From the NCBI GenBank assembly GCA_029858305.1, contig JAOUFI010000001.1, positions 160,001 to 224,000 on the forward strand: DNA of 64,000 bases. The letters run 5' to 3'. Position numbers and translations under genes: made by a program. The DNA is from Candidatus Thorarchaeota archaeon (GTDB lineage: Archaea; Asgardarchaeota; Thorarchaeia; Thorarchaeales; Thorarchaeaceae). Shown here one piece after another: positions 6,815-48,129 of this stretch (the first letter of the stretch is position 1; each line of letters opens with the position of its first letter). The notes under the pieces were generated by a model. The model saw nothing but the letters and a program-made list of their open reading frames with translations. It made no database searches and was not told the DNA's origin.

Positions 6815-8050
6815 ATGAGTACAATGGGAAGGATGAAGAAATACAAGGGTTACAAGGCATATCAGTATCTTACTCCAGGCGTTGATTATAAGGTCTTCAA
6901 ACTGAGAGATGCAATTAGGAAAGATTGGGCTTTTACATTGCCACTCTCAAAGACCGAGGAGGAACGAGTAGAGGGAATTCTCGAGAAGAACATTGTAATC
7001 GATCTCCACGAGCATCCAACATTGATGGTTGAGGATGCAAATCAGTCGGTTGAGATGTGGAGAGAGGGAAGGGAATTCATGGCCTATGAGGCTCTGAGTC
7101 AATCACCACTCGATGGTGTCTTTGATAACTTGATGGACGGCAGCGCACAAATCACTTCTAAACAGGGCTGGAAATGGACTGATATGATCCATGATCTAGG
7201 CCAGAGACTCTGCGATATCAACCATCAAGACTATGTGATTCATTGCAAAAGACCGGATGATATTGTTGCAGCACATAAAGAGGGGAAGCTAGCCTGGGTT
7301 GCGGTACTTGAGAGTTCATCATCCATAGAGAATGAAATGGATCGTATTGACATACTTTATGGTCTTGGTATCAGGTCAATGGGATTAACCTACAGCGAGT
7401 CGAATATGCTTGGTTCAGGTTTGAACGAGATGACGGACGGAGGGCTTACGGATTTTGGATATGATTGTGTGGTAAGAATGAACAAAGTGGGAATGCTCAT
7501 TGATGTGAGCCATGCAGGAGACAAGACGGCCTTGGATGCAATAGAGGGCAGTAAGAAGCCAATAATCGTATCCCATGCTGGTGCCCGTGCATTATTGCCA
7601 ATCAAGCGTTTGTTCCCTGATGAAGTTCTACAGGCGCTGGCAGAATCAGATGGAGTCATAGGTATAGAAGCTGCACCAGGTTACACAGCAACAAAAGATG
7701 ATCCAGTTCCCTCGATTGATACATATATGGCGCACCTAGAATATTGTGTCGAGCTGATGGGTATAGACCATGTAGGGTGTGGACCAGACACGCTCTATGG
7801 TGATCATGTTGGATTCTACCGCTTGGAAGACGACCGACTACTGTCTGCGGGATTAGGTCATTATTCCAGACCGGGAAAGACTGGTGAACCACCCGTGAAT
7901 CAACTTCCGGACTATGTAAGGGGCATGGAGAATGCTACTGAAGCCATGGATAATGTAGCAAGATGGCTTGTGAAGAACGGTTACTCAGACGAGGAGATAG
8001 CAAAGATCATCGGAGGCAATGCTCTAAGGCTACTGAAAGCAGTATGGTAG
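6815..8050 (+). CDS. Membrane dipeptidase family (peptidase M19)
   Basis: IDLHEH, LTYS, GLTDFG, IDVSH, IVSH, GIDHVGCGPD, IIGGNALR. Confidence 0.9.
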   Translation: MSTMGRMKKYKGYKAYQYLTPGVDYKVFKLRDAIRKDWAFTLPLSKTEEERVEGILEKNIVIDLHEHPTLMVEDANQSVEMWREGREFMAYEALSQSPLDGVFDNLMDGSAQITSKQGWKWTDMIHDLGQRLCDINHQDYVIHCKRPDDIVAAHKEGKLAWVAVLESSSSIENEMDRIDILYGLGIRSMGLTYSESNMLGSGLNEMTDGGLTDFGYDCVVRMNKVGMLIDVSHAGDKTALDAIEGSKKPIIVSHAGARALLPIKRLFPDEVLQALAESDGVIGIEAAPGYTATKDDPVPSIDTYMAHLEYCVELMGIDHVGCGPDTLYGDHVGFYRLEDDRLLSAGLGHYSRPGKTGEPPVNQLPDYVRGMENATEAMDNVARWLVKNGYSDEEIAKIIGGNALRLLKAVW

Positions 8051-15193: not shown

Positions 15194-15250
15194 ACATCTA
15201 TATGCTACATATATCACTCAAAGACTTCGATATAATCCAAGTGAACACCC

Positions 15251-30022: not shown

Positions 30023-30047
30023 AAGTGGATTCCCAGGCGAGATTTGA
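30023..30047 (-). repeat. att-like copy of the tRNA-Thr 3' end (intron-less form)
   Basis: aagtggattcccaggcgagatttga versus tRNA aagtggagccccaggcgagatttg (30467-30490); 2 mismatches in 24 nt. Confidence 0.8.
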
Positions 30048-30148
30048 TAGGAGGACTTTCGCGTTCTAATATAATTTCTTGCGTTGTGCGAAATCAGCAA
30101 TAAGCAGCAATCAGGTTTCGGAACTATTGATTAAAAGAGGAAAGAAGA

Positions 30149-30463
30149 ATGAGAACGAATTTAAAAATCACAGTTGTGAAAACATTCACTCCTGAGGATG
30201 TATTTGGTCCAAATCACGGTATTACAAGAAATGGTCAACCATTTATTCCATGTGATCATAAGGAGGGCGAAGAGTTTATTGTAAACAATCAATATGAGAA
30301 ACCAGAGGGATTCTGTGAGCGAGCTTGGCAGGATCTCTATTCAACAATAATGGTCTATTATCATGGTGGGGACTATAGATTTCCCTCGCCTGGAGCAACA
30401 TACCAGCCATGCGGGGACGGAGTAAACCCTGTTGTCTTCAAGATAGAGAAGCTGGAAGATTGA
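30149..30463 (+). CDS. TIGR04076 family protein
   Basis: KITVVK...C...G.EF...PEGFCERAW...CGDGVNPVVFKIE. Confidence 0.8.
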   Translation: MRTNLKITVVKTFTPEDVFGPNHGITRNGQPFIPCDHKEGEEFIVNNQYEKPEGFCERAWQDLYSTIMVYYHGGDYRFPSPGATYQPCGDGVNPVVFKIEKLED

Positions 30464-30469
30464 AAGAAG

Positions 30470-30577
30470 TGGAGCCCCAGGCGAGATTTGTTCCACGTTG
30501 AGAGAATCTCAGCGTGTTTGAACTCGCGGCCTCCTCCTTACCAAGGAGGCGATCTAACCGGTCTAAGCTACTGGGGC
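30470..30577 (-). tRNA. tRNA-Thr(GGT) with a 30-nt T-loop intron (58/59; 30488-30517)
   Basis: GCCCCAG/CTGGGGC acceptor; CCTCC-TTGGTAA-GGAGG; BHB helix GTTC/GAAC with 3-nt bulges. Confidence 0.92.
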
Positions 30578-30667
30578 TTTTCTATGACATCCACAAAAAG
30601 AGGTGTCATTCGGATTTCGCTTGAGGAGTAGAGATAAAGATTTCGTCTATGTCAAATTTGGAAAATA

Positions 30668-45147: not shown

Positions 45148-46005
45148 TTAATCGTAGAACCCCTGTCTTGCTATCACCTTTCCTACTGAATTGTTCAAAA
45201 GACCAAGACTGACTATGAGAGCCTCTTCAAGCCGTACTGTTTCGGATCCTTGATCATCTATTGTGTTTATCCAAAAATCAATTTGACGTTTGATATCATC
45301 TCTCTGTACATCGCAAAGCTCCAAGATGCCCCTATTGGGGTCCCCAAACACAGCCAAGACTGAGCCTGTGCTGGACACTGTTGATATCAAATCTTTCTCC
45401 AACTGAAAGAAAGGGGGCGCTTTTCTAGAGAAGCCAATTCGGGTCATATTTCTAGACCGCTCCAGTAGCTCTAGTAGGGTTCCGGTTCGGCTTGCTTCAA
45501 ATCCCCAATAGACTGGAGCTTCTAGTCGGTCTATGATGGATAAAGAGAGAGTCGGAGATACAGCTTCAACTTTGAATAAGGTAGGGTCACGTTCACTCAG
45601 CAACGTTGGAAAATCGATGAGATTATCGAATCCTAAATCAATCTTGCCAGGACGAACTTGAATTCCCCACCTCACTGTACCAGCAGTTAACTCTGATATT
45701 TTTGATAGAAGGGGGTGACTACGGGTTCGTAAGGGTGGAAGAAGTCCTGCATATTGAAGGGAGGGCGACTGGGGAAAGATTCTCCTTCTAAGATATTGGG
45801 GTGTGTCCATAAACCGTAGAATCTTCACGAGAAGATCAGCATCCCTTTTTTGCGTAGCACGGAGTTTTTCTGTGCTATAGACAAACACCTCTTCTACTCG
45901 GAATATTGCAAGTGTTCGAGCGATTTGACCGACCTTTACCGTCTTCTGTCGTAGATCGGTGCAGTCAATCAATGAGGTGTCAGGAAGTGCTACCTTGAGG
46001 GTCAT
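45148..46005 (-). CDS. SPOUT-class RNA methyltransferase (COG2106/SPOUT1-like)
   Basis: IARTLAIFRV, TPQYLRR..F, GLLPPL, QGSETVRLEEA. Confidence 0.88.
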   Translation of the reverse strand: MTLKVALPDTSLIDCTDLRQKTVKVGQIARTLAIFRVEEVFVYSTEKLRATQKRDADLLVKILRFMDTPQYLRRRIFPQSPSLQYAGLLPPLRTRSHPLLSKISELTAGTVRWGIQVRPGKIDLGFDNLIDFPTLLSERDPTLFKVEAVSPTLSLSIIDRLEAPVYWGFEASRTGTLLELLERSRNMTRIGFSRKAPPFFQLEKDLISTVSSTGSVLAVFGDPNRGILELCDVQRDDIKRQIDFWINTIDDQGSETVRLEEALIVSLGLLNNSVGKVIARQGFYD

Positions 46006-46017
46006 AGTAAAGTTCTC

Positions 46018-46479
46018 CTACAAATCTAAAGTAAACCAGAGTGTTGTTCGGTCTGTGCCTTCAAGAATCTTCATGTCAGCATAGGTCATGGCCTTGACCT
46101 CGGTTCGTGCAATGTGTCGATTAAAATCAATGCTTTCACCAAATGCTCTCCCCTTAAGGGAAAAACCTGTTAATTTCTGAGAAATATCAATGATTTCAAA
46201 CCGTGAGAAGAATTGATTGTTGATATCAATAAGAGAGATGAGGGTTCCAATCCATTCCACAAGAAGCTCTTCAAGATCAATGCCTTGTACAGATACTTCA
46301 ACAGATTCTAACGAGGCGACCGTGGTCGTATCAAGTATTACTTCGAATGTCGCTTTTGCGGCCTCTTCAAATGCATCCTTTATTGTCGGAGCCCAGCACT
46401 CGATAGTGATGTCAGCTGTGTGCTCGTGGAATCTGAATCCTCTTTCCAATTGCATAGTCTCCAATGGCACCCACGACAA
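46018..46479 (-). CDS. Archease (RtcB cofactor)
   Basis: HEHTADI, EVKAMTY, C-terminal LDL. Confidence 0.92.
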   Translation of the reverse strand: MSWVPLETMQLERGFRFHEHTADITIECWAPTIKDAFEEAAKATFEVILDTTTVASLESVEVSVQGIDLEELLVEWIGTLISLIDINNQFFSRFEIIDISQKLTGFSLKGRAFGESIDFNRHIARTEVKAMTYADMKILEGTDRTTLWFTLDL

Positions 46480-46516
46480 GAAGCTTAAAAGGCATTTCCA
46501 ACGGTGGAAACCCTAT

Positions 46517-46632
46517 GCCGAGGTAGCCAAGCCCGGACCACGGCGCCGGTCTTGAAAACCGGTGTGTTCGCACCCACGAGTTCAAAAAATGTCACAATTT
46601 GTGATATCGAGCATATCTCGTCCTCGGCGCCA
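46517..46632 (+). tRNA. tRNA-Ser(TGA) with a 29-nt T-loop intron (58/59; 46586-46614)
   Basis: GCCGAGG/CCTCGGC acceptor; CCGGT-CTTGAAA-ACCGG; long variable arm; BHB helix GTTC/GAGC; G73-CCA. Confidence 0.92.
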
Positions 46633-46720
46633 TCTCCATTTTGCTGATTGATGTTCCGTCGCACTGTAAATTCTACATGTGGTGATAATTCACAGAGAGA
46701 GTTGGACAAATGTCCATGAG

Positions 46721-47173
46721 CTAGGCTGTCCCCTTGCCGAAGAGCTTCATTCCTGAAATTGCTGACGCGAGCACAATCATAGCAATCATCATGATATATG
46801 CCATGTATGGGATGTTGAAACCGAGTACAGGAAAAGTCTGAACAAGTTCTGTAACGCAGATAACGACTGAACTGATCGTGGCGAGCACCCACCCTTGTTT
46901 TGAACTCCTCCAGAAGATCAAGTAGACCATGTATAGAATGAATATCTCTACAATCAGGACAGCAAGCCCCATCGTCCGGAGGTGCTCTGAAATCAAGTAT
47001 GCTAATTGAGGATACATACTGACTAACTCTTCCCATGTTAGCTCGCTGTATGCGAGATCATCGAGAAACAACGAGCCCATGATGAAATATGACAAGTAGA
47101 TAGCGATGTGAATTATGACTGTGAATACCCAGAAGAAAATGGCAACCTTACTTGAGATTGTTGATCGATCCAT
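46721..47173 (-). CDS. Hypothetical 4-TM membrane protein (islet cargo)
   Basis: 150 aa hydrophobic ORF between tRNA-Ser and its 3' repeat. Confidence 0.7.
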   Translation of the reverse strand: MDRSTISSKVAIFFWVFTVIIHIAIYLSYFIMGSLFLDDLAYSELTWEELVSMYPQLAYLISEHLRTMGLAVLIVEIFILYMVYLIFWRSSKQGWVLATISSVVICVTELVQTFPVLGFNIPYMAYIMMIAMIVLASAISGMKLFGKGTA

Positions 47174-47260
47174 GGTTTGACACCTTCCGTTTGCAGTCAG
47201 ACAGAAATCATACTCCGATATTTAATATGTGATGTTTATGAAGGGTGAAGTCCTACTCCC

Positions 47261-47282
47261 TCAAATCTAACCCTCGGCGCCA
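47261..47282 (+). repeat. att-like copy of the tRNA-Ser 3' end (intron-less form)
   Basis: TCAAATCTaacCCTCGGCGCCA versus spliced tRNA TCAAATCTcgtCCTCGGCGCCA (19/22). Confidence 0.75.
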
Positions 47283-47352
47283 CATAATTTTGCCGCAATA
47301 GTAGACAATAATCCCAATCTTATTCAACAATCTATGAGTCGGTGTATATCAG

Positions 47353-48129
47353 ATGGACATACCAGTGAACTCTTGGTTCAATGCAATTTCCCTTCGGCAT
47401 TCACAGAGAAAATACTCTGGAGAAAAACCAGATGAAAATGTGGTGAATAGGCTTGATACTGCATGCAGTAGTTTTCATCCTTTCGCTGGTGCAAGAGCCG
47501 TGCTTGTGAGAGAACCTGGCGATGATGTGTTCAAGGGAATCGTTGGTTCATATTTCAAAGTATCAGATGCGCCATATTACATGGCATTCATTGGCGATAT
47601 GACAACACCTAATGTACAAGAGGTAGCAGGATACATAGGCGAAGGAGTCATCCTCGAGGCGACGGCTCTGGGGCTTAATACATGCTGGGTTGGAGGTTTC
47701 ATTAACCGTGATGCTGTATTGAAACAAATCGATATGCAAGACAATGAGCGAGTTCTAGCTATCACACCTATTGGCTACTCGAAGGCTGATTCTGACCGAG
47801 TGGGTTTATCCAGCAAGAATCATAAACGAAAGGATTTGAATAAGCTTATCGTGAATGGAGACCTAGAGGAGAGTAGTTGGAGTAGAACTGCCCTTGAGGC
47901 TGCTAGGTTAGCACCTTCAGCAGCCAATAGACAACCATGGAGATTCGCAATCAAGGAGGACTCAATTGTTGTTTCGGTTATAAGCAAAAGACGAGAATTT
48001 GGTGTTTCAAGAAGGCTTGATTGTGGTATTGCCATGCTTCACCTTGAGTTGGGTGCACTTTCAACGGGTGCCAGCGGGATGTGGAAGTTCCTTGAGCCTC
48101 CCAATGTTGCATCATACAGAACTAACTAA
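47353..48129 (+). CDS. Nitroreductase family protein (tandem domains)
   Basis: RHSQRKY, LGLNTCWVGG, ARLAPSAANRQPWRF, DCGIAMLH. Confidence 0.9.
   Translation: MDIPVNSWFNAISLRHSQRKYSGEKPDENVVNRLDTACSSFHPFAGARAVLVREPGDDVFKGIVGSYFKVSDAPYYMAFIGDMTTPNVQEVAGYIGEGVILEATALGLNTCWVGGFINRDAVLKQIDMQDNERVLAITPIGYSKADSDRVGLSSKNHKRKDLNKLIVNGDLEESSWSRTALEAARLAPSAANRQPWRFAIKEDSIVVSVISKRREFGVSRRLDCGIAMLHLELGALSTGASGMWKFLEPPNVASYRTN

Follow-up and report, generated by a model that had tools for sequence, protein, structure and literature searches.

A cassette insertion with a displaced 3′ end beside an intron-bearing tRNA-Ser(TGA) gene of a Thorarchaeota archaeon, most likely incidental to the T-loop intron

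Integration into tRNA genes that leaves the 3′ part of the tRNA as a direct repeat is textbook knowledge, summarised in PMC3293823, and mobile elements are described as integrating at tRNAs in Asgard genomes (PMC8813620). In archaeal virus and plasmid integration by SSV1-type and pNOB8-type integrases (PMC3293823), the tRNA is rebuilt, its old end and flank are displaced, and foreign genes come to lie in between. Here we analyse a locus of this layout in a 64,000-nt stretch of DNA (the window) from the assembly of a Candidatus Thorarchaeota archaeon, GCA_029858305.1 (G000 below; contig numbers such as C5 or C34 denote contigs of G000 unless another genome is named). A tRNA-Ser(TGA) gene with an intron in its T loop is followed, after 628 bp carrying a single gene, by a 22-nt copy of its own 3′ end. 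We consider it probable that this 22-mer is the old tRNA-Ser(TGA) 3′ end, displaced by insertion of a cassette, and that its co-occurrence with the T-loop intron is most likely incidental. Taken alone, the Ser site is a real but ordinary integration scar of a known kind. It differs from SSV1- and pNOB8-type remnants in that the insert measures 628 bp with a single gene, no intact or partitioned integrase was found, and the repeat is 22 nt as against 44 nt for SSV1 (PMC3293823).

Two further kinds of system offer partial parallels. In tandem cassette accretion at the 3′ ends of tRNA, tmRNA or other genes, one- or two-gene units are parted by copies of the anchor's 3′ end and their contents vary among relatives, as is the case here; the Ser site, however, is a single unit with a decayed repeat and no recombinase nearby. 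The likeness to integron gene-cassette arrays, in which small, mostly single-gene units are stacked at one site and the recombinase is encoded outside the units, is superficial, since the Ser site has no IntI, attI or attC, its repeat is the host tRNA's own end, and it is not a member of that family. She et al. 2001 is reportedly a paper on gene capture.

Links between integration and tRNA introns have been proposed in both directions. Sugahara et al. 2012 (PMC3293823) presented a model of intron gain by integration for the tRNA-Thr(GGU) of Caldiarchaeum subterraneum, and the same source notes that attP and attB may differ by an intron and that an intron could shield the site. A protective role of disrupted tRNA genes against integration was put forward by Randau and Soll, as quoted in PMC4390854. 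Thus, the defence idea and the delivery idea that the initial annotation of this DNA raised for the Ser locus are both already in print. Like the Ser site, the Caldiarchaeum case has a tRNA fragment beside a tRNA of differing intron content, but there the fragment is a 5′ one lying 1.8 kb upstream beyond a recombinase gene, and the intron is at 24/25, whereas the Ser site has a 3′ fragment downstream, no recombinase and an intron at 58/59. PMC11291895 reports that Asgard genomes abound in non-canonical tRNA introns and also cites cases from Thermoproteales; like those studied here, these introns lie outside 37/38, may occur several per gene and are missed by standard finders, and we add the T-arm positions 58/59 and 53/54 and their fast turnover within one genus. 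Our literature search found no tabulation of intron position against attachment-site remnants in Asgard archaea, which is weak evidence of absence.

The Ser locus is composed of the following features, in window coordinates.
46517-46632, + strand: tRNA-Ser(TGA) gene, 116 nt with encoded CCA; exon 1 46517-46585, exon 2 46615-46632
46586-46614, + strand: T-loop intron of tRNA-Ser(TGA), 29 nt, at 58/59; 59/60 also readable
46633-47260, no strand assigned: inserted segment, a single-gene cassette of 628 bp between the tRNA and the displaced end
46721-47173, - strand: cargo gene for a 150-aa membrane protein, antisense to the tRNA and the sole open reading frame (ORF) of the insert
47261-47282, + strand: displaced tRNA-Ser(TGA) 3′-end copy, T55 to CCA, in intron-less form; attR-like and decaying
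47283-47352, + strand: original downstream flank of the tRNA (TTTTGCCGCAATAG...), running up to the nitroreductase-family gene
47353-48129: nitroreductase-family gene (Pfam TM1586_NiRdase)

The 22-mer TCAAATCTAACCCTCGGCGCCA at 47261-47282 (+) matches the in-silico spliced tRNA-Ser 3′ end at 19/22 positions, as first noted from the sequence, and none of 100 dinucleotide shuffles yielded two matches (expected number 0.00). Against the unspliced genomic 22-mer at 46611-46632 the score is 17/22; the copy therefore fits the intron-less form, as had been claimed, a fit that rests on two bases in the Ser case and on one base in the tRNA-Thr case described below. The agreement rises to 20/22 with the Ser(TGA) 3′ form of 14 of the 19 orthologues (from 18 same-genus genomes and G000), which has a CTCAT T stem; one of the copy's three mismatches thus reflects a later compensatory change in the T stem of G000. 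tRNA-Ser(CGA) of contig C45 matches the copy equally well (19/22) and tRNA-Phe(GAA) at 18/22; we assign the copy to Ser(TGA) and not to Ser(CGA) on the orthology between its flank and the DNA native to the Ser(TGA) locus.

This orthology also identifies the insertion. Forty relatives were searched with 46018-48129, and the tRNA-Ser(TGA) locus was taken from 18 same-genus genomes. In G012 and G023, tRNA-Ser has neither a T-loop intron nor an insert: the sequence reads ...TTTCATTTTGCCGC/G..., with the flank directly next to the tRNA and the nitroreductase-family gene after it. The post-copy flank of G000 agrees with this direct post-tRNA flank at 53/91 positions in G012 and 60/99 in G023, compared with 31/84 when G000's own post-tRNA flank served as the control, and it also aligns with the DNA after the copies in G009, G010, G016 and G022. 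Because the flank of the copy directly follows the tRNA in G012 and G023, the copy marks where the tRNA gene ended in the ancestor, and the intervening 46633-47260 was inserted; the locus is thus an old integration site, as had been supposed. The arrangement is not an assembly artefact, since contigs from independent metagenomes (X2 records 2 and 4, X3 record 8) carry the same junctions. One X2 contig spans tRNA, intron and cassette (46146-46873, 7 differences), and contigs of X2 (46888-47502) and X3 (46871-47495) span cassette, copy and nitroreductase start. In X3, a near-identical strain, the copy has a 2-nt deletion at 47266 and a G>T change at 47277; the copy drifts like non-functional DNA.

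As the initial annotation stated, the tRNA and the copy bracket one gene, whose 150-aa product has about four hydrophobic stretches in Kyte-Doolittle windows (hence 4-TM, for four putative transmembrane segments) and matches no Pfam family. The 4-TM gene was found in 7 of 201 sampled genomes of the phylum including G000, the other six all being from another family (22-54% identity; the 54% homologues are in two of these genomes), and in 0 of 14 sampled same-genus genomes. A homologue with 77% amino acid identity is present in one same-genus metagenome-assembled genome, on a different contig and with a different neighbour gene. RNA run X20 yielded one 181-nt contig inside the 4-TM gene (46817-46997), which is no proof of transcription and is silent on splicing. 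Distant X4 contigs have loose ends at 46696 and at 47173/47188, reflecting either another context of the 4-TM gene or mere divergence.

The insert is variable across the genus. In 11 of the 16 same-genus Ser loci with at least 1.4 kb of downstream sequence, the Ser 3′ end recurs once or twice downstream (up to 5 mismatches of 22; by our own estimate, chance would give about 0.002 per locus). The first gene after tRNA-Ser comes from a wide range of unrelated families; in the relatives it encodes, variously, a beta-helix protein, a 673-aa protein of unknown function, a beta-propeller protein, a DUF4760 protein, a LigT-like protein, a formamidase or an HTH protein, and the same modules recur in differing order from genome to genome. 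In G008, G016 and G024, the DNA upstream of tRNA-Ser is 95-96% identical and the DNA just downstream differs in each; the 332 bases downstream of the G008 gene have no match in the 18 other loci. In the closest relative, G007, the Ser locus is missing from the assembly, the contig ending inside the nitroreductase gene. An extra 3′-end copy is present in the Ser loci of G015, G016 and G022 (L024, L025 and L026), overlapping the nitroreductase-family gene at its C-terminal end or lying beyond it, and this "core" neighbour may itself be an old cassette. In G016 (L025, C141 of that genome, about 1167-2444), an IS200/IS605 TnpB-type gene (OrfB_IS605, Cas12f1-like TNB) has been inserted, separating the archease gene from tRNA-Ser. 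The bases that precede the Ser copy in G000 (..ATGAAGG.TGAAGTCCTACTCCC) are homologous to those before the Ser copy of G004 (L016), where the cassette genes differ, and may form a conserved cassette end.

Based on these findings, we consider the following course of events probable. A segment of 628 bp with one membrane-protein gene would have been inserted by site-specific recombination into the segment running from the T loop to CCA. Recombination would have rebuilt a working tRNA end on the left, and the old end, together with the native flank and the nitroreductase gene, would have been pushed to the right to leave an attR-like scar. The recombinase would have to act in trans, since it is encoded neither at the site nor anywhere in the assembly. 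The data show the duplication, the insertion with its variability and genome-wide frequency, and the changeable state of the intron; from them we infer the recombination mechanism and likewise the order in which intron and insert were gained.

tRNA-Ser(TGA) was detected by neither ARAGORN nor Rfam at 46517-46632, and was recognised by a scan for acceptor stem, T arm and CCA as a complete class-II cloverleaf once 29 nt are removed from the T loop. It has the acceptor GCCGAGG/CCTCGGC, the anticodon loop CTTGAAA, a variable-arm hairpin, the T stem ACGAG/CTCGT and discriminator G. Its T loop spans 36 nt instead of the usual 7, and excising 46586-46614 restores TTCAAAT; an A run makes the 59/60 reading possible as well. 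The 29 nt are probably removed by splicing, judging from the sequence: intron-less tRNA-Ser orthologues show exactly the predicted exon join, 12 of the 19 orthologues have a homologous intron, and the hairpin arms covary among these 12 (UCCAC/GUGGA, UCGUC/GACGA, GUCACA/UGUGAU). The intron contains this hairpin and a GAGC tetranucleotide able to pair with G53-C56. Hairpins also occur within canonical introns of some Ser orthologues; a reading of these as displaced variable arms was set aside.

Six tRNAs of G000 have T-loop introns of one build and 28-30 nt, namely Ser-TGA and Thr-GGT in the window and Pro (C85), Val-CAC (C95), His (C162) and Leu-CAG (C180) outside it. In our own reading, a 4-bp helix between G53-C56 and GAAC (variants GAGC and GAAU) can be drawn in all six and in the orthologues, with the tetranucleotide 4 nt before the 3′ strand of the T stem. 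The splice sites would then fall in unpaired stretches on opposite strands, about 5 nt apiece as against 3 nt in the textbook bulge-helix-bulge. No strict 3-4-3 bulge-helix-bulge can be drawn, and the G53-C56/GAAC helix was not predicted by RNAalifold.

The companion case in the window comprises the following features.
30470-30577, - strand: tRNA-Thr(GGT) gene, 108 nt, with a 30-nt T-loop intron
30149-30463, + strand: 104-aa ORF between tRNA-Thr and its copy
30026-30047, - strand: displaced tRNA-Thr 3′-end copy, 20/22, starting at T55

ARAGORN called a 75-nt intron-less tRNA-Thr at 30504-30578, which we rejected as a mis-call of the 108-nt intron-bearing gene. The 7-mer AAGTCCT is found just upstream of both the Ser and the Thr copy (47236-47260 and 30048-30062). 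No copies were detected near the window's Ile, Pro and Trp tRNAs, which confirms an observation first made by eye.

From these two cases, the initial annotation had suggested that tRNAs with T-loop introns specially coincide with integration sites, and a genome-wide census speaks against it. We counted 41 tRNA genes in G000 by Infernal and our own scan; this is a lower bound because our scan accepts a gene only when its acceptor stem is perfect, T8 and G10 are present and the CCA is encoded, and tRNA-Ser(CGA) on C45 is not among the 41. For each gene, we looked for the spliced 22-mer from T55 to CCA at distances of up to 25 kb, excluding tRNA genes and allowing up to 4 mismatches. Downstream copies on the same strand occur at 13/41 tRNAs, namely at 3/6 with a T-loop intron (Leu-CAG at +582, Ser at +629 and Thr at +423) and at 10/35 without (Fisher p=0.36); an 18-mer census gave 3/6 versus 13/35 (p=0.66). 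As far as 41 genes can tell, remnants are thus equally frequent with and without a T-loop intron, the outcome that the initial annotation had named as refuting its inference. Downstream sequence extends for 1.0, 3.0 and 2.9 kb at the three T-loop-intron tRNAs that lack a copy; where a copy is present, it lies no more than 630 nt away in all three cases. Upstream matches were confined to a tandem cluster of Arg-type tRNAs. The Ser site is therefore one of at least 13 tRNA-anchored cassette sites in G000, and the ten at tRNAs without a T-loop intron are as follows.
C5: tRNA-Tyr, two copies, 0 mismatches
C91: tRNA at 7390, two copies, 0 mismatches
C111: tRNA at 7775, 1 mismatch
C113: tRNA-Glu-TTC, 0 mismatches
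C113: tRNA-Met, 2 mismatches
C119: tRNA at 45988, 0 mismatches
C188: tRNA at 15238, 1 mismatch
C202: tRNA-Gly-GCC, 0 mismatches
C204: tRNA-Leu-GAG, three copies
C205: tRNA-Leu-CAA, 1 mismatch

The common start of the Ser and Thr copies at T55 stood up, but it is not special to intron-bearing tRNAs: copies mostly start at positions 53-55 with or without an intron (Met and Gly at T55), and the tRNA-Glu copy is longer, covering 41 nt from the anticodon loop. Because the starts are alike irrespective of introns, the T55 start is a property of the recombination system and not of the intron. Cassette cargo across the genome is of an ordinary accessory kind and includes a methyltransferase, a CAAX protease, a GGR-like oxidoreductase, LRR, BNR and FG-GAP proteins, a GNAT protein, a DUF2284 protein and proteins of unknown function. 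Within the genus, copies accompany 8/10 intron-bearing and 3/6 intron-less Ser genes (p=0.30), counts that overstate the evidence because the genomes are related and not independent. For Thr the figures are 5/14 with and 5/11 without a T-arm intron (Fisher test run as 5/13 versus 5/11, p=1.0).

We favour incidental co-occurrence for two reasons: tRNAs lacking T-loop introns bear scars about as often, and the cassettes next to intron-bearing genes go on changing. Several results weigh against it or against the proposed insertion mechanism. No integrase, whole or split, is present at the site, and PF00589 has 0 matches in the 88.9%-complete assembly; in the genus, PF00589 integrases are found in just 8/28 genomes, mostly on short contigs, and so the mechanism is unproven. 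Contigs of four public runs show no joint across the cassette, as from an excised or empty site, and none across the intron, with the proviso that contigs drop rare variants. The three copies at T-loop-intron tRNAs match the spliced form at 5/5 discriminating bases (T55 in Ser, Thr and Leu-CAG, plus one more each in Ser and Leu-CAG). These copies are also more decayed, with 2, 3 and 3 mismatches against 0, 1, 0, 2, 0, 1, 0, 0, 1 and 0 for the best copies elsewhere (one-sided exact Mann-Whitney p=0.007), so that 9/10 other tRNAs have 0-1. When only tRNAs with at least 4 kb downstream are considered, the census becomes 3/3 versus 7/26 (p=0.033), a cut that was chosen post hoc. Finally, a foreign gene or segment follows tRNA-Ser in 10/10 intron-bearing but in 3/6 intron-less genus genes with enough flank. 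A Pfam scan of 19 + 16 cassette proteins detected no recombinase. Elsewhere in the genus, a short contig (L075, G020:C116:1-2406) carries three tyrosine-recombinase genes in a row. A causal tie between intron and integration is left open by these data, being neither shown nor excluded.

T-arm introns come and go quickly in this genus. On a tree of 18 genomes built from archease and an RNA methyltransferase (380 columns), the state of the Ser T-loop intron is most parsimoniously explained by 5 changes; well-supported branches force at least 4 of these, and the state shows no clustering (290/500 shuffles were as low). At the Thr locus, 27 genus genomes were searched and the gene was found in 26. 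Of these tRNA-Thr(GGT) genes, 10 have an intron at 58/59, 5 have an unrelated one at 53/54 and 11 lack a T-arm intron. G000 itself has the 58/59 intron, and its closest relative G007 (L048, C18 of that genome) has one at 53/54 of unrelated sequence. The two genomes nevertheless have a Thr cassette ORF (104 aa) in common, with 82% DNA identity over query 1-1139. Because the same cassette stands beside different introns, an intron change need not travel with the adjacent cassette.

At one locus, recombination can be seen to exchange intron content. In G024 (L055; C314:17000-19500 of that genome), the intron-less tRNA-Thr(GGT) at 257-335, confirmed by ARAGORN, is followed 30 nt later by a displaced tRNA-Thr 3′ part (366-475) that starts in the anticodon loop and holds both a canonical and a 53/54 intron; the repeat extends 8 nt beyond CCA. 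The working tRNA-Thr of G024 lost two introns at once, the old part being pushed aside. This one clear example corresponds to the mechanism of Sugahara et al. in the direction of loss. The tRNA-Ser of G024 differs from those of G008 and G016 in its 3′ half and intron content despite a 96% identical upstream flank, and a two-gene insert and a copy lie downstream of it; the bases upstream of that copy gave an ambiguous signal of intron remains. A displaced fragment and a working gene of differing intron content are likewise seen in G000 for Ser, Thr and Leu(CAG), with G024 Thr as the reverse case.

Cassette traffic at tRNA 3′ ends might, then, itself drive intron turnover in Thorarchaeota, with recombination swapping in an incoming 3′ part and thereby adding or removing introns. 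We put this forward as a tentative idea that is more probably wrong than right. If true, the 53/54 and 58/59 introns would sit at the left edge of the core, where exchanged DNA meets resident DNA, and the single-locus model of 2012 would become a general, testable mechanism by which non-canonical tRNA introns arise in those archaea that stand closest to eukaryotes. The Ser site is of value through the data set to which it belongs: the 28 Asgard genomes of the genus combine many tRNA-anchored single-gene cassettes lacking a visible recombinase with very fast gain, loss and relocation of T-arm introns, exemplified by Thr at 58/59 here and 53/54 in the closest relative. Since cassettes and intron turnover meet in one genus, the two older ideas of protection and delivery can be checked by a census and an integrase assay. 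Our limited test speaks against protection and yields one clean case of intron exchange by recombination.

As applied to the G000 Ser gene, delivery or exchange would mean that the incoming DNA brought its own tRNA 3′ part with the intron, displacing an intron-less old end. The G024 Thr locus is the mirror image of this, the G024 Ser gene with its altered 3′ half, insert and copy is in keeping with it, as is the insert at all ten intron-bearing Ser genes, and the model is a published one (PMC3293823). The Ser gene, however, has just 4-5 nt of identity (TCAA(A)) left of the intron, leaving little room for a crossover; the common Thr cassette of G000 and G007 goes with introns at different positions; and no element with an intron-bearing attachment site was found. 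The mechanism of Sugahara et al. in the direction of gain is therefore possible for the G000 Ser gene but would need a crossover within those 4-5 nt. The linkage of intron delivery to integration, raised in the initial annotation, thus receives a clear exchange in a relative and none for the Ser gene itself, for which integration-linked exchange is an open possibility that we rate as rather unlikely.

The same annotation had also read the intron as a defence, gained or kept since it splits the attachment core from T55 to CCA, so that intron-bearing tRNAs would keep old scars only. This corresponds to the Randau and Soll protection idea (in print in PMC4390854 and PMC3293823). The intron does lie 4 nt inside the 22-nt repeat, and the spliced-form fit and greater decay of the three G000 copies noted above are what this explanation would lead one to expect. 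Nevertheless, cassettes turn over beside intron-bearing genes. G008 and G016, whose tRNA-Ser genes are 95% identical and share one T-loop intron, also agree at 95% in their upstream DNA, yet the DNA right after the tRNA is unrelated, and G014 has an extra LigT-like cassette with a copy before the DUF4760 cassette that comes first in G009 and G011, one intron type being present in all three. Near-perfect copies stand beside 58/59-intron genes in G022 (Ser, 1 mismatch in 22; Thr, 0 in 18 against its own end), and it is genus Ser copies beside intron-less genes that are more decayed, with 5, 5 and 3 mismatches. Many copies begin only at A57-A59, and hence the 17-18 nt 3′ of the intron may suffice for recombination. 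Together with the equal remnant frequency in the census, these results lead us to disfavour protection, which we think quite improbable.

It is very unlikely that the copy is a functional element, such as a spare 3′ exon, a processing signal or a terminator for its neighbours. In favour of a function, the nitroreductase gene starts about 70 nt further on and such copies recur at numerous loci, but the three mismatches of the copy destroy the T stem, there is no 5′ partner upstream, the relatives' copies have 1-5 scattered mismatches, and the X3 strain carries the deletion and substitution described above. Chance similarity, or a copy taken from Ser-CGA or Phe-GAA in view of their 19/22 and 18/22 matches, we reject on the shuffle test and the flank orthology, the copy also lying on the same strand 628 nt downstream, next to the native Ser(TGA) flank, and matching the commoner orthologue form at 20/22.

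The tRNA complement of G000 has further irregularities beyond the displaced Ser(TGA) end. Two Ser genes were missed or truncated by standard tools: tRNA-Ser(CGA) at C45:13020-13154, with a canonical and a 53/54 intron, and tRNA-Ser(GCT) at C50:9028-9170, with an insert in the D region. The Arg-type cluster at C34:45911-49983 consists of four genes in tandem, 1-2 kb apart, that agree in their 18-nt 3′ end; the anticodon call of one is odd, the acceptor end of one is broken, and the four resemble whole-tRNA copies inside a cassette array. At C5:5961-7144 (L033), perfect copies of the tRNA-Tyr 3′ end lie at +183 and +1055, and the 40 nt that follow the second copy are the same as those that follow the tRNA, so that a unit has undergone tandem duplication.

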